Part shown: positions 22,038 through 30,148 of the stretch, piece by piece
Layout of the letters: each line of letters opens with the position of its first letter
Numbering within the stretch: position 1 is the first letter of the stretch
From: an uncultured Actinomycetota bacterium
Lineage (GTDB): Bacteria; Actinomycetota; Actinomycetes; JAHEKZ01
Length of the DNA stretch: 64,000 nt
Reading direction: 5' to 3'
NCBI GenBank assembly: GCA_963718235.1
Contig: CAVQYR010000002.1
Span: 525,454-589,453, forward strand
The notes under the pieces: generated by a model
What the model saw: only the letters and a program-made list of their open reading frames with translations
The model's database searches: none
Told to the model about the DNA's origin: nothing
Position numbers and translations under genes: made by a program

Positions 22038-22735
22038 CCCGAACCAGGCTGGTGCGGACCCCGCGCGGCCGGGCCCGGCTGCACGTCCATCTGGCGCCGA
22101 TGTCGACCCGGGCGCTGCTCGTGCTGGGGCACGGAGCAGGCGGCGGGGTGGACGCCCCGGACCTGGCCGCGCTAGCCCGGTGGCTCCCCGCGCGGGGGGT
22201 GAGCGTGGTGCGGGTCGAGCAGCCTTGGAAGGTGGCCGGACGCCGGGTCGCCTCGCCTCCGACCTGGTTGGACGAGGCGTGGGTCCCTGCGGTGTCGGCG
22301 GCCCGACGCCTCTGCCCCGAGGTGCCAGTCGTCGTCGGAGGGCGGAGCGCAGGGGCGCGGGTCGCCTGTCGGTGTGCCCGGGCGACCGGCGCTCGGGGAG
22401 TGCTCGCCCTCGCCTTCCCGCTGCACCCGCCGCAGCGTCCCGAACGCAGCCGGGCCGGGGAGCTGGAGGTGCACCTGCCCCTGCTGGTGGTCCAGGGTGA
22501 GCGTGACGCCTTGGGGACGCCGGCCGAGCTGCGCGCCGCCTTGTCGCCGAGCGGCGGCTCTGGACGGGGGTCGCGCTCGGAGCTGGTGGCGATCCCGGCT
22601 GCCGACCACGGGTTCGGTGTGCCGCGCCGCGGGCCGATCACCCCCGCGGAGGTCGACAGCCTGATCGTGGAGGCGGTGGTGGGCTGGATCGCCGCGGTCG
22701 AGGCCGGCCGACCCGGTGGGGAATCTTCACCGTAG
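22034..22735 (+). CDS. alpha/beta hydrolase-fold protein (KANL3/dienelactone-hydrolase-like predicted hydrolase)
   Basis: It starts with a GTG that overlaps the previous stop (GTGA). The sequence contains [10 protein letters not shown]...[12 protein letters not shown]...AADHGF. Confidence 0.7.
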
Positions 22736-22836
22736 GCGGTGGCGTTGCCCCTGGCGTGACGAGGACGAGTGCCCCACGGGCGCTGCAGGCACGGGGGGGC
22801 GATGGCGCGTCCCTCGCGCCGCTACCCTTCGGCGTG

Positions 22837-23496
22837 ATGACTGACGACACTCACGACACCCACGACGCTGACGGCGCTGCGGGCGACCCGGCCGACGAGA
22901 GCATCGAGCAGCGCACGGCTCGCTTCGAGCGCGACGCGCTGCCCTACCTCGACCAGCTCTACGGAGCGGCCCTGCGGATGACGCGCAACCCGGCCGATGC
23001 CGAGGACCTCGTCCAGGAGACCTTCGCCAAGGCGTTCTCGGCCTTCCACCAGTACCGCGACGGCACCAACCTCAAGGCCTGGCTCTACCGCATCCTGACG
23101 AACACGTTCATCAACACCTACCGCAAGAAGCAGCGGGAGCCCCAGCAGTCGATGGCCGAGGAGGTCGAGGACTGGCAGCTCGCCCGGGCCGCCGAGCACA
23201 CGTCGGCAGGACTGCGCTCGGCGGAGGCGGAGGCCCTCGACCGGCTGCCGGACAGCGACATCAAGGATGCGCTGAACGAGCTCAGCGACGACTTCCGGCT
23301 CGCGGTCTACCTCGCCGACGTCGAGGGCTTCGCGTACAAGGAGATCGCCGACATCATGGGGACACCGATCGGCACGGTCATGTCCCGGCTGCATCGGGGG
23401 CGCAAGCAGCTGCGCACCCTTCTGGAGGACTACGCGATCGAGCGAGGGCTCATCCCCGCGACCACCGGCGGGGACCAGGAGGAGGAGGGGTCATGA
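22837..23496 (+). CDS. sigH: ECF sigma-70 factor of the SigH/SigR (thiol-oxidative stress) type
   Basis: Region 2 is [20 protein letters not shown]...[16 protein letters not shown]. Region 4 is [42 protein letters not shown]. The ZAS anti-sigma gene immediately downstream is 4-nt coupled to it. The start could be the ATG at 22837 or the upstream one at 22756. Confidence 0.85.
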
Positions 23497-23774
23497 GCTG
23501 CGGGAACCCGCACGCGGTCGACTGCTCGAAGGTGCTCGAGACCGTCTACCTCTACCTCGACGGCGAGATCGACCACTCCGAGCTCGGGGTCATCCGAGAG
23601 CACCTCGACGAGTGTTCGCCGTGTCTTCGCGAGTACGGAATCGAACGCGAGGTCAAGCAGCTGGTGGCCCGTAGCTGCTGCGAGACGGCGCCGGAGTCGC
23701 TGCGGCACGCGGTGATCGCGCGGATCCGGGTGGTGCGCACCGAGATGACCCAGGTGGAGTTCCGCGCCGACTGA
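23493..23774 (+). CDS. rshA: ZAS-family anti-sigma factor (RsrA/RshA-like)
   Basis: 93 aa with an HxxxCxxC zinc motif ([12 protein letters not shown]) and further Cys residues at the N-terminus. It overlaps the sigma gene (ATGA). Confidence 0.8.
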
Positions 23775-23990: not shown

Positions 23991-24749
23991 TCAGCCGGCG
24001 ATCCGGCGGTTGAGGGCATCGAGCACCGAGCGGGCTACCGCGTCGGCCTCGTCGCCTCGGATGACCGCGCTGCCACTGGTCGACTGTGGGCCGATCCGCG
24101 GCACGTTCACGACGAGCACGGTCAGGGCCACGCTGTGGATCCCGGCCTCGATCACCGTGACCGACTCGACCTCGGTCGGCAGCCCCAGCAGCGGCTCGAG
24201 GGCCGACAGGGTCGCCTGGGCCACGAGTCGATGACGGTAGGAGGCGGCTCCGGACCCTGACGCCGCGCCGTCGAAGGTCTCGTCGCCGAAGGCCAGTCGA
24301 ACCACGGCCTCGGCCTCTGCGCCGGACGTGCGGACCGTCAGCGACGTGATTGCCGGCCGCACGGTCTCCTCCGAGTCAGCCTCGACGACGTCGTCGCGGA
24401 CCGGCACCGGACCGGCCTCCTGAGACTCAGCCGCGAGGACGCTCGGTGCTGTCGGGGTCTGCGAGGTCGGCGCCTCGGCCGGGGGCCGGGTCGCCCCGTT
24501 GGGCGGGGTGGCGTCCTCCTCGCCGATCTGGACCACGCTCACGATCCGGTGGTCCAGATCGATGTCGTAGCGGGTCAGCGCCACCGACTGGACGTCGCGG
24601 ACGAGCTGCTTGGCGGGCTTGCCCGGGGACGCCAGCACGTGGACCTCGGTCGGGACCGCTTTGGGGTCGGTGACCACACTGACCGCGCGGATCCCGGGGA
24701 TCTGGCGCAGCGCGTCCTCCAGGGCGGGCAGCAGACGCAACGTGGGCAT
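23991..24749 (-). CDS. hypothetical protein (two similar beta-rich halves)
   Basis: I take the internal ATG at 24749 (MPTLRLLPALEDALRQIPGIRAVSVV...), which has GAGAGAG about 11 nt upstream. The listed ORF starts at 24791. I recognise no family for it. Confidence 0.5.
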   Translation of the reverse strand: MPTLRLLPALEDALRQIPGIRAVSVVTDPKAVPTEVHVLASPGKPAKQLVRDVQSVALTRYDIDLDHRIVSVVQIGEEDATPPNGATRPPAEAPTSQTPTAPSVLAAESQEAGPVPVRDDVVEADSEETVRPAITSLTVRTSGAEAEAVVRLAFGDETFDGAASGSGAASYRHRLVAQATLSALEPLLGLPTEVESVTVIEAGIHSVALTVLVVNVPRIGPQSTSGSAVIRGDEADAVARSVLDALNRRIAG

Positions 24750-24803
24750 GAAGGTCAGTCTCTCTCGGGTATGGGTCACGGGGTTGCGCATCGGTCAGAC
24801 AGG

Positions 24804-25220
24804 TCAGGGGTCGCTGGGCAGGACGGTGAGCCCGGCGACCAGGAGCCGACGGGGGGTGGGGTCGTAGGGAGCTTCGTCTCCAGCGTCACCCTCGTCGTAG
24901 GACGGCCCCTCGTCGAGGACGTCCTCGGTGGGTTCCTGGTCGAGGATGTCCTCGTCACGAGCCTCGGCGCGGGCCTGTTCGAGGCCGAGCATCGCGGCCG
25001 GAACGGCCGTACGGGCGTGCTCGACGAGCCCTCGCACCGACTCCCGCTGGAGCCAGCGCAGCCGCCGGGCGGTGTCGGGGTCGAGGTGACCGCTGGCCAC
25101 CGCCGCCGCCACCTCCTCGTCGAAGCGCTGGGTGGCGACGTCGTCACGGACGTCCAGGAGACCGGCGACGAGGTCGCCGTAGGCGGCCGTCCTGGCCGAG
25201 CTGCGAGCCGTGTCGATCAC
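24804..25220 (-). CDS. hypothetical protein with an acidic C-terminal tail
   Basis: I take the internal GTG near 25220 (VIDTARSS...), which has a GGGGAGG SD 7 nt upstream. The listed ORF extends to 25334 with low-complexity sequence. It is 12 nt upstream of the previous gene. Confidence 0.45.
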   Translation of the reverse strand: MIDTARSSARTAAYGDLVAGLLDVRDDVATQRFDEEVAAAVASGHLDPDTARRLRWLQRESVRGLVEHARTAVPAAMLGLEQARAEARDEDILDQEPTEDVLDEGPSYDEGDAGDEAPYDPTPRRLLVAGLTVLPSDP

Positions 25221-25357
25221 CGGATGTGCCTCCCCCCAACCGTCGCCCGCCCGCGCAGCGGGCACGCCGCGTGAGGACGAGGCTAGGGCAGCGAGATCGC
25301 CGCTGAGCCAGGGCCGGGTACAAGCCTGCGCCATTCGGGTTGGGGCTAGTGCTTGAT

Positions 25358-25575: not shown

Positions 25576-25612
25576 CCCGTCGTCCTCGTGACGACGGGCA
25601 CGAGCTTTGTTT
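25576..25612 (+). terminator. terminator/attenuator-like hairpin inside the 5' leader of the HD-GYP operon
   Basis: The element is CCCGTCGTC-ctcgt-GACGACGGG, a perfect 9-bp stem. It is followed by cacgagcTTTGTTTCat. It lies about 200 nt upstream of the HD-GYP start codon. Confidence 0.35.
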
Positions 25613-25685
25613 CATCCAGCGGAGCGAATCGCGCGCGAGCCAACCAGCGGGGCTCGTGACACTCCAACGGAGGTGATTCCCACCG

Positions 25686-25751
25686 ATGAGCAAGATCGTG
25701 GCAGCTGTCGAGCGTGCCCTCGCCGCAGGCGCAGGGTGGGCCTGGAACTGA
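25686..25751 (+). CDS. 21-aa upstream ORF (candidate leader peptide)
   Basis: A GGAGGTGA SD lies 9 nt before the ATG. It encodes MSKIVAAVERALAAGAGWAWN and ends 56 nt before the HD-GYP gene start. Confidence 0.3.
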   Translation: MSKIVAAVERALAAGAGWAWN

Positions 25752-25807
25752 CCCCACAGCTGCCGATCCTGGTTTCGCCCTTTGCGCCTTCCCCAGGAGT
25801 GGAGCCG

Positions 25808-27262
25808 ATGCAGGCACTGCGCCCCGCGGCGCGCGGCTACATCGCGGTGGTCATCACCATGGCCGCCGTGGCTGTCGTCGTGTCGATGGCGGCCGCCCTC
25901 GGAGTCATCGACGTCGAGATTCTGCGCATCTCCGAGGTTGACGATTTTTGGCAAACGATCATCGTGCTCGCCCCCGTGTACGTCCTCGCCACCTCCACAC
26001 CGTCGGCCATGGCGGTCCCGGTGGCCATGATGGCGAACGTCCCGGTGCTCTTCGCGGCCTACCTGATCGCCGGTCCGGCCGCCGCCGTCCTCGTCGCCGC
26101 GTCCGGGCTCCTCGCGTTCACCTCGGTCCCGTGGGTCAAGCGAGGTTTCAACACCGCCCAGTTCACCCTGATCGGCCTGGGCGCCGGCCTGGTCTACGTG
26201 ATGCTCGACGGCCCCTTCGCCGAGGACTTCGCGGCGGCCAACTTCGGACGGGACATCCTGGTTCCGGTCGTCGCCTCCAACGTCGCAGCGATGGTGCTGA
26301 ACGGGCTCCTGCTCTTCGGCGTGCTCCGTACCGCCGAGGGACTGTCCTTCCGGTCCATGTGGCGCACCGTCATCGCCGGCTCGGCCGTGCCCTACCTCGG
26401 GTACGGGCTGTTCGGACTCCTCATGGCGGTGCTGTGGTCCGTCGGCAGCGGGTTCGGTGCGACTCTGGTGCTGCTTCCGCTGCTCATCGCCCGCTGGGCG
26501 TACCGGCAGTACGCCGAGCAGCAGCGGGCGTACGAGGCGACCATCGCCGCGATGGTGCAGGCGGTCGAGACCAAGGACCACTACACCCGTGGACACAGCG
26601 AGCGCGTGTCGCGAGCCGCAGTGATGATCGCCCGCGTCCGGGGCATGACGGCGGACCGGGTGAACGCCCTGCGCTACGCCGGGATCCTGCACGACGTCGG
26701 CAAGCTGGGTGTGCCCACACGTTTGCTGCAGAAGACCGGCCCCCTGGCCGACGGTGAGTACGAGCGGATCAAGATGCACCCGGTGCACGGCACCGAGATG
26801 GTTCGTGGGATCACCTTCCTGGAAGAGGCGTACGAGGGGATCCTGCACCACCACGAGCGCCTCGACGGTCTCGGCTACCCCAGCGGTCTGAAGGGCATGG
26901 ACATCCCCGAGTTCGCCCGCGCCATCGCCGTCGCCGACGCCTTCGACTCGATGACGTCGACCCGTTCGTACCGAGGGGCTCGCAGCGTCGAGAAGGCGCT
27001 GGAGGAGCTGGACCGCTGGAAGGGTACCCAGTTCGACCCGGCCATGGTCGACGCGCTCGTGACGGCATTGGAGCGCGAACCGTGGAAGACCACCGCGGTC
27101 GTCGTCGACACCGCTGACGGCGAGACGCCGGTCGCCGCGAGCTTCGACCACGACGACCCGGGCGCCCCGATCCCACTTGGCAGCGACCAGGCCCTGGCTG
27201 CGGCCGCCGAGGAAGCCGAGAGCGCCCAGGTGTCGGCCCTGCGACGTCAGGACGACGCATGA
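25808..27262 (+). CDS. membrane-anchored HD-GYP domain protein (putative c-di-GMP phosphodiesterase)
   Basis: An AGGAGTGGAG SD precedes the ATG at 25808. About 7 N-terminal TM helices are followed by an HD-GYP domain (HSERVS...HDVGKLGV...HHERLDGLGYPSGLKG). Confidence 0.8.
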   Translation: MQALRPAARGYIAVVITMAAVAVVVSMAAALGVIDVEILRISEVDDFWQTIIVLAPVYVLATSTPSAMAVPVAMMANVPVLFAAYLIAGPAAAVLVAASGLLAFTSVPWVKRGFNTAQFTLIGLGAGLVYVMLDGPFAEDFAAANFGRDILVPVVASNVAAMVLNGLLLFGVLRTAEGLSFRSMWRTVIAGSAVPYLGYGLFGLLMAVLWSVGSGFGATLVLLPLLIARWAYRQYAEQQRAYEATIAAMVQAVETKDHYTRGHSERVSRAAVMIARVRGMTADRVNALRYAGILHDVGKLGVPTRLLQKTGPLADGEYERIKMHPVHGTEMVRGITFLEEAYEGILHHHERLDGLGYPSGLKGMDIPEFARAIAVADAFDSMTSTRSYRGARSVEKALEELDRWKGTQFDPAMVDALVTALEREPWKTTAVVVDTADGETPVAASFDHDDPGAPIPLGSDQALAAAAEEAESAQVSALRRQDDA

Positions 27263-28542
27263 GGTCGCGCTGGTTCGACTCCTCGGCGGGCGCGACGCTC
27301 GTGGTGATCGGCGCGCTCCTGCTCGTGGCCGGTGCGGTGATGTCGACGAGCGTCCAGGGTCTCGTCCAACCGATGATCGCCCTGGCCTTCGGCGGCTTCG
27401 TGGCGGTCGGTGAGCTGATCCGGATCAACCTGCCGGGAGACCGGGTGACCGCTCCGCTGGGCGCGGCGGGTGCTCTGGGCTACGCCCTCCTGGAGAGCTT
27501 CGACGGGGTCCCGACGCAGTACGACGCCATGCAGGTGATCGCCGTGGTTGCGGTGGGCATGCTCGTCGGCACCGTGCCGCACGTGGCGGTGGGCCAGCCT
27601 CCCCGGCTCGAGGCGATGGCCCGCCGGATCCTCACGACGGCCTTCGCCGCGGCCATCTTCCGGCCGCTGTACACCTCCGGTGCCCTCGACGGGCTCGAGA
27701 CGCCGGACTGGCAGCTGCCGGCGTTCATGCTCGTCGTCGTCGCGTGCAGCGGTTTCGTCGACGCCCTGCTCGCGGCACTGATCCGCAGCAGCCGCGAGCG
27801 GCTTCCGTTCCTCGCCGCACTTCGGGACGAGGGGCGCGCCTTCGTGGGGATCGGCTCGGTCATCGGTGCCACCGGCGTCCTGATCGCGCTGGCCGCCGAG
27901 GTCATGGGCTACTGGGCGCTGCCCATCTTCGCGATCCCGCTGCTCATCGCCCAGTTCTCCTTCCGCCGGTACGCAGCGATCCGAGCCACCTACACCCAGA
28001 CGATCCGGGCACTGTCCCGCGTCACCGAGGTGGGTGGGTACACCGAGACCGGGCATGCCCGCCGGGTCAGCCAGCTCGCCCTGGCGGTGGGGCGCGAGAT
28101 GGGGCTGTCGGAGTCTGCCCTGATCGACCTGGAGTACAGCGCCCTCATGCACGACATCGGCCAGCTGTCGTTGTCCGACCCGATCCCCGGCGGAGCGACG
28201 GTCATGGTCGCGCCGGACGAGCAGCGCCGGATCGCCGGCCTGGGTGCCGAGGTCATCCGCAAGACGGGGGTCCTGGACCGGGTCGCGGTGATCGTCGAGT
28301 GCCAGAGCGAGCCCTACCGCCGCCCAGGACAGCCCCTGGACGCCGGGATCCCGCTGGCGAGTCGGATCATCCGGGCGGTCAACGCCTACGACGACCGGGT
28401 CGGCGGGTTGAACGACCTCGAGCACCAGCTTGCCGCGCTCGAGCAGCTGCGGCTGGGCATGGCCTACGACTACGACCCACGGGTCGTGGAGACCCTGAGC
28501 CGGGTCGTGGAGCGCAACTCCCGGCTCGGCGTCCAGCCCTAG
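27259..28542 (+). CDS. paralogous membrane protein with a degenerate HD domain (HD-GYP-like, GYP motif lost)
   Basis: It is 4-nt coupled (ATGA) to the upstream gene and has a similar polytopic N-terminus. The domain has HARRVSQLA...MHDIGQLSL but no GYP motif. Confidence 0.75.
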   Translation: MRSRWFDSSAGATLVVIGALLLVAGAVMSTSVQGLVQPMIALAFGGFVAVGELIRINLPGDRVTAPLGAAGALGYALLESFDGVPTQYDAMQVIAVVAVGMLVGTVPHVAVGQPPRLEAMARRILTTAFAAAIFRPLYTSGALDGLETPDWQLPAFMLVVVACSGFVDALLAALIRSSRERLPFLAALRDEGRAFVGIGSVIGATGVLIALAAEVMGYWALPIFAIPLLIAQFSFRRYAAIRATYTQTIRALSRVTEVGGYTETGHARRVSQLALAVGREMGLSESALIDLEYSALMHDIGQLSLSDPIPGGATVMVAPDEQRRIAGLGAEVIRKTGVLDRVAVIVECQSEPYRRPGQPLDAGIPLASRIIRAVNAYDDRVGGLNDLEHQLAALEQLRLGMAYDYDPRVVETLSRVVERNSRLGVQP

Positions 28543-28617
28543 CCGGCCGGAGGCGACCGCGTCGCGTGCTTGGATGGCGCTGCGTGTGCTGCACGCGACG
28601 AGGCGAAGGGAGCCACG

Positions 28618-28851
28618 GTGGCTGAGCAGGTCCGCGCGGAGATGGTCGCGAACGTCCTGAAGGTCCTGGTGGGTGCCGGCGACCCGGTGGCCGCCGGAGA
28701 CGCCGTGGTGATCCTGGAGTCGATGAAGATGGAGATCCCGGTCCTGGTCGAGCACGCGGGAACCGTGGTGGCGATCGACGTCCAGGAGGGCGACGTGGTC
28801 CAGGAGGGCGACGTCATGGTCGAGGTCGCCGACGCGGTCGCGGCCGGCTGA
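28618..28851 (+). CDS. biotin/lipoyl-attachment domain protein (TB7.3-like biotinylated protein)
   Basis: The GTG start is supported by a GAAGGGAG SD. The sequence VAEQVRAEMVANVLKV...VVILESMKMEIPV has the AMKM-type biotinyl-lysine motif and resembles the small mycobacterial biotinylated protein. Confidence 0.75.
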   Translation: MAEQVRAEMVANVLKVLVGAGDPVAAGDAVVILESMKMEIPVLVEHAGTVVAIDVQEGDVVQEGDVMVEVADAVAAG

Positions 28852-28942: not shown

Positions 28943-30118
28943 GTGGAGAGCTCCAGTGAGACCCTCGACGCCATCCGTGCGCCTCTGATCGAGGCCGCCC
29001 TGGACCCGGCGACCGGCAGCGACCTGAGCTCGAGCGCGCCGGTCTCCGTCGAGCCGTTCCTGCGCGCTCTGGTCGACCTCGGCGGCTCCGACCTGCACTG
29101 CAAGACCGGCTCGCCGCCCCGGGTCCGGATCGACGGGCGGCTGCGCAAGCTCCAGGCCCGTACCCTCACCGCCGTCGACACCGAGTTCATGGCCTCTGAG
29201 GTCCTGCGCGACGACCTGATCGAGCAGTTCGCCCACAGCAACGAGGCCGACTTCGCCTACTCGCTGCCGGGCGTGGGCCGGTTCCGGGTCAACGCCTTCC
29301 GGGCCCGTGGGTCGGCCGGACTCGTCTTTCGTCGGGTGTCGGTCGGCGCGATCGAGCTGGAGGACCTGGGGCTGCCCCAGGTCGTCGGTGCCCTGTCGCT
29401 GGAGCCGCGCGGACTGGTGCTGGTCACCGGCCCGACCGGTTCGGGCAAGACGACGACCCTCGCGGGCATGATCGACAACATCAACCAGAACCGCGAGGTC
29501 CACATCGTCACGATCGAGGACCCGATCGAGGTCCTGCACTACGACAAGCTCTCGATGATCAACCAGCGCGAGATCCGGATCGACACCCAGGACTTCGCCA
29601 CCGCGCTGCGGGCCGGCATGCGCCAGGACCCCGACGTCATCCTGGTCGGTGAGATGCGCGACTCCGAGACGGTCAAGGCCGCCCTGGCTGCCGCAGAGAC
29701 CGGCCACTTCGTCATGTCGACCCTGCACACCACTGACGCGGCTGAGACGGTCAACCGAGTCATCGACTTCTTCCCACCCCACGAGCAGAAGCAGATCCGG
29801 CTCACCTTGGCCGAGTCCCTGCGCGGCATCCTGTGTCAGCGCCTCGTCCAGCGAGCCGACGGCTACGGGCGGTGCGTGGCGATGGAGGTGCTCGTCAACA
29901 CCGGCCGGATCGCCGACGCGATCTCCGACCCGGACAAGACGTCGACGATCACCCAGCTCGTGAGCGAGGGCTCGCTACTACGGCATGCAGACGTTCGACC
30001 AGCACCTGGTCTCGCTGATCCGCGACGGCGTCATCACGCTGGAGTCGGCGATGCTCGCCTCGTCGAGCCCGCACGACCTGACCGTCGAGCTGCGTCGTCT
30101 GGGCCTGGTCGCCTAATC
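28943..30118 (+). CDS. pilT: type IV pilus retraction ATPase PilT, apparent frameshift near 29975
   Basis: The Walker A motif is GPTGSGKTT, the Asp box is HIVTIEDPIE, Walker B is DVILVGEMRD, and the His box is VMSTLHT. The listed frame ends in junk (LLRHADVRPAPG...) at 30139. A shifted frame reads the canonical PilT C-terminus YYGMQTFDQHLVSLIRDGVITLESAMLASSSPHDLTVELRRLGLVA and stops near 30118. Confidence 0.7.
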
Positions 30119-30148
30119 TTGAGGTCGCGCCGCTCGTAGGGTGGCGCC

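Follow-up and report, generated by a model that had tools for sequence, protein, structure and literature searches.

The closest described relatives of the gene pair analysed here are hdgA (vnz24090) and hdgB (vnz24095) of Streptomyces venezuelae, which encode a membrane protein with six transmembrane (TM) helices and an HD-GYP domain (6TM-HD-GYP) and a second one (6TM-degenerate HD-GYP) 'missing the key GYP residues' (PMC6205966, Al-Bassam et al. 2018). The two genes were judged a probable operon, both proteins were found in the membrane fraction, and hdgB transcripts and protein outnumbered those of hdgA; of 93 Streptomyces genomes, 76 had an HdgA orthologue and 79 an HdgB orthologue (PMC6205966). 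In a preprint by Galperin and Chou the N-terminus of HdgA was assigned to MASE9, and hydrolysis of cyclic di-GMP (c-di-GMP) by HdgA despite a Ser in place of the Lys of the RxxK motif was quoted there as a personal communication only. In S. coelicolor the genes for SigR (SCO5216), RsrA (SCO5217) and an HD-GYP protein (SCO5218) are consecutive. A similar pair, referred to as genes A and B, was found in a stretch of 64,000 nucleotides (nt) from an uncultured Actinomycetota bacterium (GenBank assembly GCA_963718235.1, contig CAVQYR010000002.1, positions 525,454 to 589,453 of the forward strand). This whole stretch is called the window, and all positions are counted from its first letter. Comparison of the sequences indicated that A is equipped as a phosphodiesterase, that B is a conserved pseudo-enzyme, and that both proteins probably act together in one membrane sensor.

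The two genes were located as follows.

25808..27262, + strand: gene A, HdgA-like membrane HD-GYP phosphodiesterase (predicted), 484 amino acids (aa)
27259..28542, + strand: gene B, HdgB-like membrane protein with degenerate HD-GYP domain, 427 aa
27259..27262, + strand: ATGA overlap in the context gcATGAgg, comprising the ATG of B and the TGA of A

Inspection of the sequence bore out the adjacent genes and the ATGA overlap that had been reported in the original prediction, and B is presumably translationally coupled to A. An AGGAG site is located 5' of the ATG of gene A, and the closest homologues of A are likewise 484 aa long, with 100% coverage. The GC contents at third codon positions (GC3) of 0.90 for A and 0.93 for B are as expected for real genes in DNA of about 70% GC, a value found throughout the window. 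Long open reading frames (ORFs) on the opposite strand had no support and represent the antisense shadows commonly seen with high-GC genes. The nearest relatives of the window were uncultured Actinomycetes.

On a chromosome from the Streptomyces violaceusniger group (CP126066.1, locus L088) genes for a sigma factor, a zf-HC2 anti-sigma factor, an A-type protein and a B-type protein occur in this order. The A-type protein was 57% identical to the A protein of the window over 281 aa and carries RTYS, which is the RxxS variant reported for HdgA, while the B-type protein was 48% identical to B over 407 aa. Because of the same architecture, this order of genes and the arrangement of SCO5216 to SCO5218, the pair in the window was assigned, on sequence grounds, as the actinobacterial orthologue of hdgA/hdgB; the assignment was made via the Streptomyces relative, and Vnz_24090 and Vnz_24095 were compared by description. 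As with HdgA (Vnz_24090) and HdgB (Vnz_24095), and with SCO5218 and its neighbour, a membrane HD-GYP protein is followed by a GYP-less membrane protein with a degenerate HD-GYP domain, in a probable operon beside sigR-rsrA. Differences from the Streptomyces genes were the RSYR of A in place of RxxS and the 4-nt overlap of the genes; moreover, the pair in the window is from an uncultured actinomycete, and the B protein of the best species-level relative is only 68% identical. The pair as such has already been described and named, and the copy in the window is a further member of a functionally orphan gene pair. To our knowledge HdgA and HdgB are the sole HD-GYP proteins of Streptomyces, and we know of no signal, partner or phenotype for them. 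Newly observed here are the universal pairing, the synteny with sigH/rshA, natural fusions of both proteins, an S-component-like fold of both membrane domains and a Trp-tailed short ORF. In CP126066.1 (L088 3683-7263) 867 nt separate the annotated hdgA stop from the hdgB start, yet the frame of hdgB remains open back into hdgA, and the lengths called elsewhere for the same protein are 448 to 664 aa; hdgB may start at another place than annotated or may have an N-terminal low-complexity extension.

Intact and degenerate HD-GYP domains

The domains of the two proteins were delimited as follows.

25808..26512, + strand: N-terminal polytopic membrane domain of A, probably of a divergent MASE9 type, aa 1-235
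26522..27082, + strand: stalk helix and HD-GYP catalytic domain of A, aa 239-425
27259..27963, + strand: N-terminal polytopic membrane domain of B, aa 1-235
27988..28521, + strand: degenerate HD-GYP domain of B, aa 244-421

Both C-terminal domains exceeded the cut-off of the Pfam family HD_5 (27.2 bits), with 129.1 bits for A and 35.0 bits for B. A and B were 27% identical by BLASTP over about 230 aa (E = 4e-17), a region which extends from the last membrane helix through the linker helix into the HD domain, and a profile comparison of the C-terminal halves with hhalign gave an E-value of 3.7e-23. Besides the HD_5 score, Foldseek matches to 9rbz and 4mcw (prob 1.0) point to an HD-GYP fold of B.

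Residues were mapped by HMMER alignment to PmGH of Persephonella marina (PDB 4mcw), the reference active HD-GYP protein, and also to V-cGAP3 (PDB 5z7c), with residue roles according to PMC4159591. A contains the motif run HD…H…HHHERLDGLGYP. All seven core ligands, H263, H295-D296, H324, H348-H349 and D377, are present and correspond to H189, H221, D222, H250, H276, H277 and D305 of PmGH, and the catalytic pair D257/K299 corresponds to D183/K225. A also has E350, D380 (D308 in PmGH), G356-Y357-P358, a KPG-like K309-T-G311 and the RxY[K/R] motif R386-S-Y388-R389. The key residues were 99-100% conserved in 187 family members. Y259 of A aligns with E185, the third-metal ligand of PmGH, so that the trinuclear ligand is absent and A belongs to the Y/F binuclear subgroup (PMC4159591). 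A shares the core ligands, the motifs and the fold (E = 2e-8) with PmGH, whereas PmGH has a trinuclear centre and a GAF input domain and A has a membrane input domain. The HD, HHE and GYP motifs had suggested a c-di-GMP phosphodiesterase, and this stands, as A has every residue of an active enzyme and is likely to hydrolyse c-di-GMP.

B keeps H…HD, and ECQSEPYRRPGQP stands where A has HHE…GYP. Three of the seven core ligands, H266, H298 and D299, are retained. The substitutions relative to PmGH are given below.

D183 of PmGH: G260 in B
K225 of PmGH: Q302 in B
H250 of PmGH: G329/A330 in B
H276/H277 of PmGH: Q349/S350 in B
D305 of PmGH: N375 in B

In the alignment to PmGH and A the motifs GYP, KPG and RxxK were all absent from B, and the RxxK region was represented by a five-residue deletion. 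Among 171 diverse members of the B family, Q302 was conserved to 95%, Q349 to 85% and N375 to 89%, while H266, H298 and D299 reached 99%; the range for N375, D378 and D379 was 88-94%. HH did not occur at the double-His position in any of the 171 members, and the equivalents of D183, K225, H250, H276 and H277 were each absent in 85-100% of them. Judging from these alignments the degenerate state of B is old and fixed. In PmGH the exchanges H250A, H276A, H277A, K225A and D183A each abolish activity (PMC4159591). Since B is devoid of the equivalents of these five residues, it is predicted to be inactive on c-di-GMP. The proposal that B is a pseudo-enzyme was thus supported insofar as four of seven core ligands and both catalytic helpers are lost, and the alignment showed neither a full set of ligands nor a substitute for GYP. 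B is likely dead as an enzyme and yet functional.

That B is a decaying duplicate without function might be concluded from the lost catalytic motifs and from the absence of a deletion phenotype in S. venezuelae, but the conservation data contradict this. In 70 of 76 genomes conservation was higher for B than for A, the median identity to the window protein being 52% for B and 49% for A. Furthermore, the replacement residues Q302, Q349 and N375 are themselves fixed, and a profile search of 1.84 billion cluster representatives revealed 391 B-type clusters at E<=1e-30; in the window the ORF is intact, with the high GC3 stated above. Decay of B was rejected, and its probability is regarded as negligible.

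The original prediction also considered B as a receptor for c-di-GMP. This is doubtful, and B is unlikely to bind the nucleotide in a known way because the contact motifs, i.e., the Tyr of GYP, KPG and RxxK, are gone. The nearest precedent is DvhD of Desulfovibrio vulgaris (PDB 9rbz/9rc0), a membrane protein whose catalytically dead HD-GYP domain is used for signalling and binds c-di-GMP without metal (PMC13090378). DvhD was the top structural match of both models, and 9rbz the best Foldseek match of the B model. The pattern of losses is, however, the reverse of that in B. In DvhD, which has a dCache-PAS input domain, HD is changed to SQ and HH to MN, whereas B keeps HD and has lost the GYP Tyr, the KPG Lys/Gly and RxxK. 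A DvhD-like B that reports the nucleotide level outward or to A was therefore regarded as improbable.

A similarly low probability was given to B as a re-tooled single-metal HD hydrolase with another substrate, or as a metal or redox sensor, operating via H266 and H298-D299 (with N375/D378). The strong conservation of H266, H298 and D299 and of N375, D378 and D379 would agree with such a function; classical HD domains use one metal held by H…HD…D, and the locus is always beside the thiol-stress pair SigH/RshA. Yet the fourth classical ligand is Asn and not Asp, the catalytic D183 and K225 are replaced by Gly and Gln, and no known family with such a set of motifs was found in Pfam, NCBIfam or PDB.

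Membrane domains and predicted structures

According to hydropathy the N-terminal halves of A and B each consist of about 230 aa forming hydrophobic helices. A weak, collinear hhalign match was obtained between the two membrane domains (E = 0.0067, profiles of 73-75 sequences); with richer profiles the E-values were 2.3e-5 in global and 1.4e-3 in local mode. Conserved charged residues in the membrane domain of B are E52, R55, R62, R123, R135, D168, R176 and E191. MASE9 (Pfam PF20972) comprises eight hydrophobic segments, two short ones making an intramembrane hairpin. Of 47 A orthologues, 14 matched this family at E<=0.01, with a best E-value of 3.3e-10, and the number rose to 23 when E<=10 was allowed. 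The A protein of the window itself gave no match to this family even at E<=10, and none of 50 B relatives matched it at E<=0.1. Trp_oprn_chp (PF09534) was also considered as a relative of the A membrane domain and was discarded as a chance match, as only 1 of 47 orthologues was found even at E<=10.

AlphaFold2 models were made of A and B as monomers, with pLDDT values of 82.6 and 86.7. The helices in the model of A (6-30, 44-63, 77-88/90-102, 109-132, 146-177, 181-212 and 215-235) are compatible with MASE9. Arg residues in both N-termini, together with the cytoplasmic location of the C-terminal domains, argue for an even number of membrane passes and not for seven. The description of the proteins as 7TM-like had to be revised, since the models and the charge distribution are fitted better by about six TM helices plus a short re-entrant element, with both ends inside.

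The C-terminal parts of both models matched the solved HD-GYP domains of DvhD, PmGH and PA4781 in Foldseek searches, A with E-values of 1e-8 to 1e-6 and B with 7e-4 to 2e-2 (prob 1.0). The membrane bundles of both models resembled S components of energy-coupling factor transporters (RibU, BioY, CbiM). For A the matches were TmRibU (5kbw; prob 1.0, TM-score on target 0.56), RibU (3p5n) and BioY (4dve), and for B they were CbiM (5x3x_M; prob 0.99, TM-score on target 0.59) and TmRibU. Over all S-component matches of both bundles prob was 0.85-1.0 and the TM-score on target 0.46-0.59, with weak E-values of 0.1-3.5. A and B have no sequence similarity to S components and no transporter genes nearby, and the resemblance is at the level of the fold only. 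These matches, with their weak E-values, hint at a pocket for a small ligand within the membrane. A common fold of the A and B membrane domains is plausible from the models, while common descent is unproven. The earlier view of two paralogous 7TM-like proteins overstates the evidence, and the membrane domains are only weakly alike in sequence.

Conserved pairing, natural fusions and probable joint action of A and B

A pattern scan with one genome per species gave at least 586 loci with a relative of B, and the best 80 of these were kept for the locus counts. They include metagenome-assembled genomes (MAGs) of Actinomycetota, Streptosporangiales, Jiangellales, Nanopelagicales, Sporichthyaceae, Trebonia, Actinopolymorpha and Nocardiopsis; 70 loci had enough flanking DNA and are referred to as informative. 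An A-type gene was present directly 5' of B on the same strand in 80 of 80 loci. A start overlapping in the form NTGA was available for B in 49 of the 80, and in the remainder gaps of less than 75 nt prevailed. Conservation of the two genes as neighbours, which had been named as a test of the pairing, was thus complete in this set, and in one lineage they are even fused. The pair is ancient, fixed beside sigH/rshA, and widespread in Actinomycetes, with at least 586 species-level genomes.

The fusions were detected as two long representatives among the B-type clusters, P0288 (950 aa) and P0322 (979 aa). Each contains an A-type half (membrane domain, HD…HHHE…GYP) and, C-terminal to it, a B-type half (membrane domain, LLHDxGQ…NAYDD). 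Both clusters had several full-length members, on eight or nine contigs, and the fusion ORFs were uninterrupted in three and in at least four independent samples; the loci are L081-L083 for the 979-aa fusion (e.g., 6001-8940 in L081) and L084-L087 for the 950-aa fusion (e.g., 1853-4705 in L084). The order of genes (EPSP synthase, SRAP, sigma, zf-HC2, a 53-aa ORF and the fusion) revealed the same sigma/anti-sigma locus. P0288 and P0322 were 44% identical and collinear over 951 columns, which indicates one old fusion event that was kept through long divergence. With the N- and C-termini inside, a fusion of A to B is topologically possible. As Rosetta-stone evidence the fusions suggest that A and B belong to one assembly, and they are the strongest support found for the idea of a heteromer. 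Joint action, which was part of the earlier proposal of a heteromeric pair, is favoured by these fusions and by the invariable adjacency; the heteromer itself we infer.

The most probable interpretation, held with some reserve, is that the locus is an orthologue of the hdgA-hdgB operon, with A as a membrane phosphodiesterase and B as a conserved pseudo-enzyme, both assembled into one heteromeric sensor in which B gates A, and with a short ORF upstream of A in the same unit. A would be a signal-gated membrane sensor consisting of a MASE9-like bundle with both ends cytoplasmic, a long stalk helix and a fully equipped HD-GYP domain of the binuclear subgroup, which hydrolyses c-di-GMP. B would have the same layout, its HD-GYP domain being unable to build a two-metal centre or to hold the nucleotide in the known way. 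Outside the HD core the most similar segment of A and B is the last membrane helix with the stalk helix (LPLLIARWAYRQYAEQQRAYEATI in A, IPLLIAQFSFRRYAAIRATYTQTI in B). PmGH dimerises through its stalk helix (α5) and the GAF input domain (PMC4159591), and the corresponding stalks of DvhD form a tight dimer (PMC13090378). From these precedents and the similarity of the stalks, pairing of the A and B stalks is expected, and A and B would probably assemble as a heteromer via the stalk helices and the membrane bundles. The membrane bundle of B, with its many conserved charged residues, may supply a second input or a regulatory module that gates the phosphodiesterase of A. The short, Trp-tailed ORF might encode a leader peptide or a small peptide acting as partner or ligand.

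Such an arrangement would resemble V-cGAP3 of Vibrio cholerae, in which a dead N-terminal HD-GYP domain occurs beside a live one. No PDB sequence matched A or B better than V-cGAP3 (5z7c), and both of its domains were matched by A. However, V-cGAP3 is a single soluble polypeptide in which the dead domain precedes the live one, and it acts on 3'3'-cyclic GMP-AMP (3'3'-cGAMP), whereas the window encodes two membrane proteins of which the dead one is second, and the RxYR motif of A fits c-di-GMP. HnoD of Shewanella oneidensis likewise has a degenerate HD-GYP domain; it does not itself hydrolyse c-di-GMP and modulates a partner phosphodiesterase. It differs from B in being a soluble REC-HD-GYP response regulator, and its partner is an EAL enzyme and not an adjacent paralogue. 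For general biology the pair is one more combination of enzyme and pseudo-enzyme and no new principle. The old, fixed and widespread occurrence of the pair, the better conservation of the dead partner and the lineage with welded proteins provide testable handles on an orphan c-di-GMP input module.

Several observations weigh against gating of A by B in a heteromer. In a 2026 BACTH two-hybrid screen only self-interaction of HdgB was reported, and we know of no report of an interaction of HdgA with HdgB. In S. venezuelae neither the deletion of hdgA nor that of hdgB caused a developmental phenotype, and both genes are missing from 13 of 93 Streptomyces genomes (PMC6205966). One Streptomyces locus has an annotated gap of 867 nt between A and B, and tight coupling is therefore not universal. 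In the fusions the first His and the Lys of the A half are lost, so this lineage may not keep catalysis.

Some of these data could also mean that A and B are co-expressed, separate homodimeric sensors, A being a stand-alone phosphodiesterase and B an independent receptor or scaffold for other partners, with the operon serving co-regulation only. The self-interaction of HdgB fits this, as do the homodimers formed by PmGH and DvhD and the higher abundance of hdgB transcripts and protein in S. venezuelae. In addition, A and B differ strongly in the sequence of their membrane domains, B never matches MASE9, and the two may sense different things. On the other hand, separate homodimers do not explain well why natural A-B fusions were kept through divergence to 44% identity, why A and B are adjacent in 80 of 80 loci with frequent overlap of stop and start, and why both genes are mostly present or absent jointly in Streptomyces (HdgA in 76 and HdgB in 79 of 93 genomes, with 13 lacking both). 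Independent homodimers were hence considered unlikely, though a serious possibility.

The short upstream ORF and the flanking genes

Gene A is preceded by a small ORF ending in a Trp-containing tail.

25686..25751, + strand: short ORF of 21 aa, MSKIVAAVERALAAGAGWAWN, with the ribosome-binding site GGAGGTGA

It ends 56 nt before the ATG of A and is in a frame other than that of A. The 180 nt before A were 71-79% identical among the closest loci. In 69 of 78 loci (L001-L007, L009, L015-L066, L069, L071-L075, L077, L079 and L080) the 200 nt upstream of A encode a peptide ending in [G/N/Q]xxW(x)-stop; in the controls this number was 1 of 78 for the reverse complement and, on average, 1.8 of 78 for shuffled sequences. 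A Shine-Dalgarno-like site was present before 55 of the 69 short ORFs, and the median length was 21 aa. The clade of the window and Jiangellales have the peptides MSKLVSAVERFLSSGAGWSWH, MKKIVSAIEQFLQSNANWRWD and MKKASSAIENFLRTGANWRWQ, while …PPGVSWT and MLKETVTPVFPGISWT were found in Streptosporangiales and …RASGVSWG in Trebonia. Actinopolymorpha has two copies ending in …GKGGYEWG. Internal repeats occurred in a Streptomycetales MAG (two PNWKW) and in the 53-aa ORF of the fusion loci (two (T/C)WWWHP). In the clade of the window the conserved residues showed synonymous changes, and the differences by codon position were 186/145/251, with the third position dominant. No match of the peptides to a Pfam or NCBIfam family was obtained, and no Trp-tailed short ORF was detected at the one Streptomyces locus examined. 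These data suggest that the short ORF belongs to the same conserved unit as hdgAB and is a candidate for an unannotated third component.

The N-terminal part of the peptides was highly variable and the C-terminus conserved, and the ORF closely precedes the main gene, as would fit a regulatory leader peptide. Internal repeats and duplicated genes are more in line with a peptide product or with sensing of Trp codons. In the literature collection searched, no paper linked HD-GYP with a leader peptide. In the 470-nt leader the search for a riboswitch or other known RNA yielded only a chance hit to Rfam (E = 0.6), which was discarded, folding of 25660-25830 was not unusual (z = -0.83), and the only terminator-like hairpin in the leader, at 25585-25604, lies upstream of the short ORF. 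The widest interpretation, which is speculative and rather unlikely, is a module of three genes encoding a Trp-tailed micropeptide, HdgA and the pseudo-enzyme HdgB. In it HdgA and HdgB would combine into a heteromeric membrane phosphodiesterase whose ligand pockets are S-component-like, and the micropeptide would be either a peptide signal, C-terminally processed like the streptococcal SHP/XIP pheromones, or a nascent-chain switch setting the translation of hdgAB, the whole module being wired to the SigH/RshA thiol-stress locus across Actinomycetes.

The following flanking genes were identified.

22756..23496, + strand: sigma factor of the extracytoplasmic function type (SigH/SigR type), conserved neighbour
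23493..23774, + strand: zf-HC2 anti-sigma factor (RshA/RsrA type), conserved neighbour
28570..28851, + strand: biotin/lipoyl-attachment-domain protein, 93 aa, next gene after B
28943..30139, + strand: pilT-like ATPase gene with a frameshift near 29973

The sigma and anti-sigma genes were found upstream on the same strand in 70 of 70 informative loci, and also in the fusion loci and in Streptomyces. Either a functional connection with thiol stress or no more than old synteny may lie behind the fixed place beside SigH/RshA. A SigR/SigH promoter before A was rejected, as the pattern GGAAY-N16-20-GTT was absent upstream of A and found before the sigma gene. There, GGAAT-N19-GTT is located at 22720-22746 (+ strand), directly 5' of the sigma gene, which fits autoregulation; this promoter-like site also suggests that the GTG listed as the start (22756) was placed too far upstream. 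The anti-sigma gene is separated from hdgA by two ORFs in divergent orientation and without a Pfam match, 23991-24791 (- strand, 266 aa) and 24804-25334 (- strand, 176 aa). The former was absent from Streptosporangiales loci and occurred at the same place in nine related loci (L001-L003, L005, L006, L009, L012, L016 and L074) with 39-59% identity.

Downstream, the pilT-like gene had been regarded as a c-di-GMP-responsive function connected with the pair. A pilT homologue within 8 kb downstream of the pair was present in only 8 of 70 informative loci, all from close relatives, and never in Streptosporangiales, and pilT was rejected as a conserved associate. In the window the biotin/lipoyl gene lies between B and pilT, and pilT is frameshifted; there was no evidence of a functional link. 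Compared with the homologues in L001, L016 and L006, the gene has one extra C at about 29973 (GGCTCG-C-TACTAC), by which its last 46 codons (YYGMQTFDQ…RRLGLVA), 98% identical to those of the relatives, are shifted out of frame. The cause is either an error of sequencing or a real truncation of the gene. A homologue of the biotin/lipoyl protein was present within the flank in 54 of 70 loci, at variable distance and in variable orientation. This small gene is reminiscent of that for the biotinylated protein TB7.3, located near sigH in mycobacteria.

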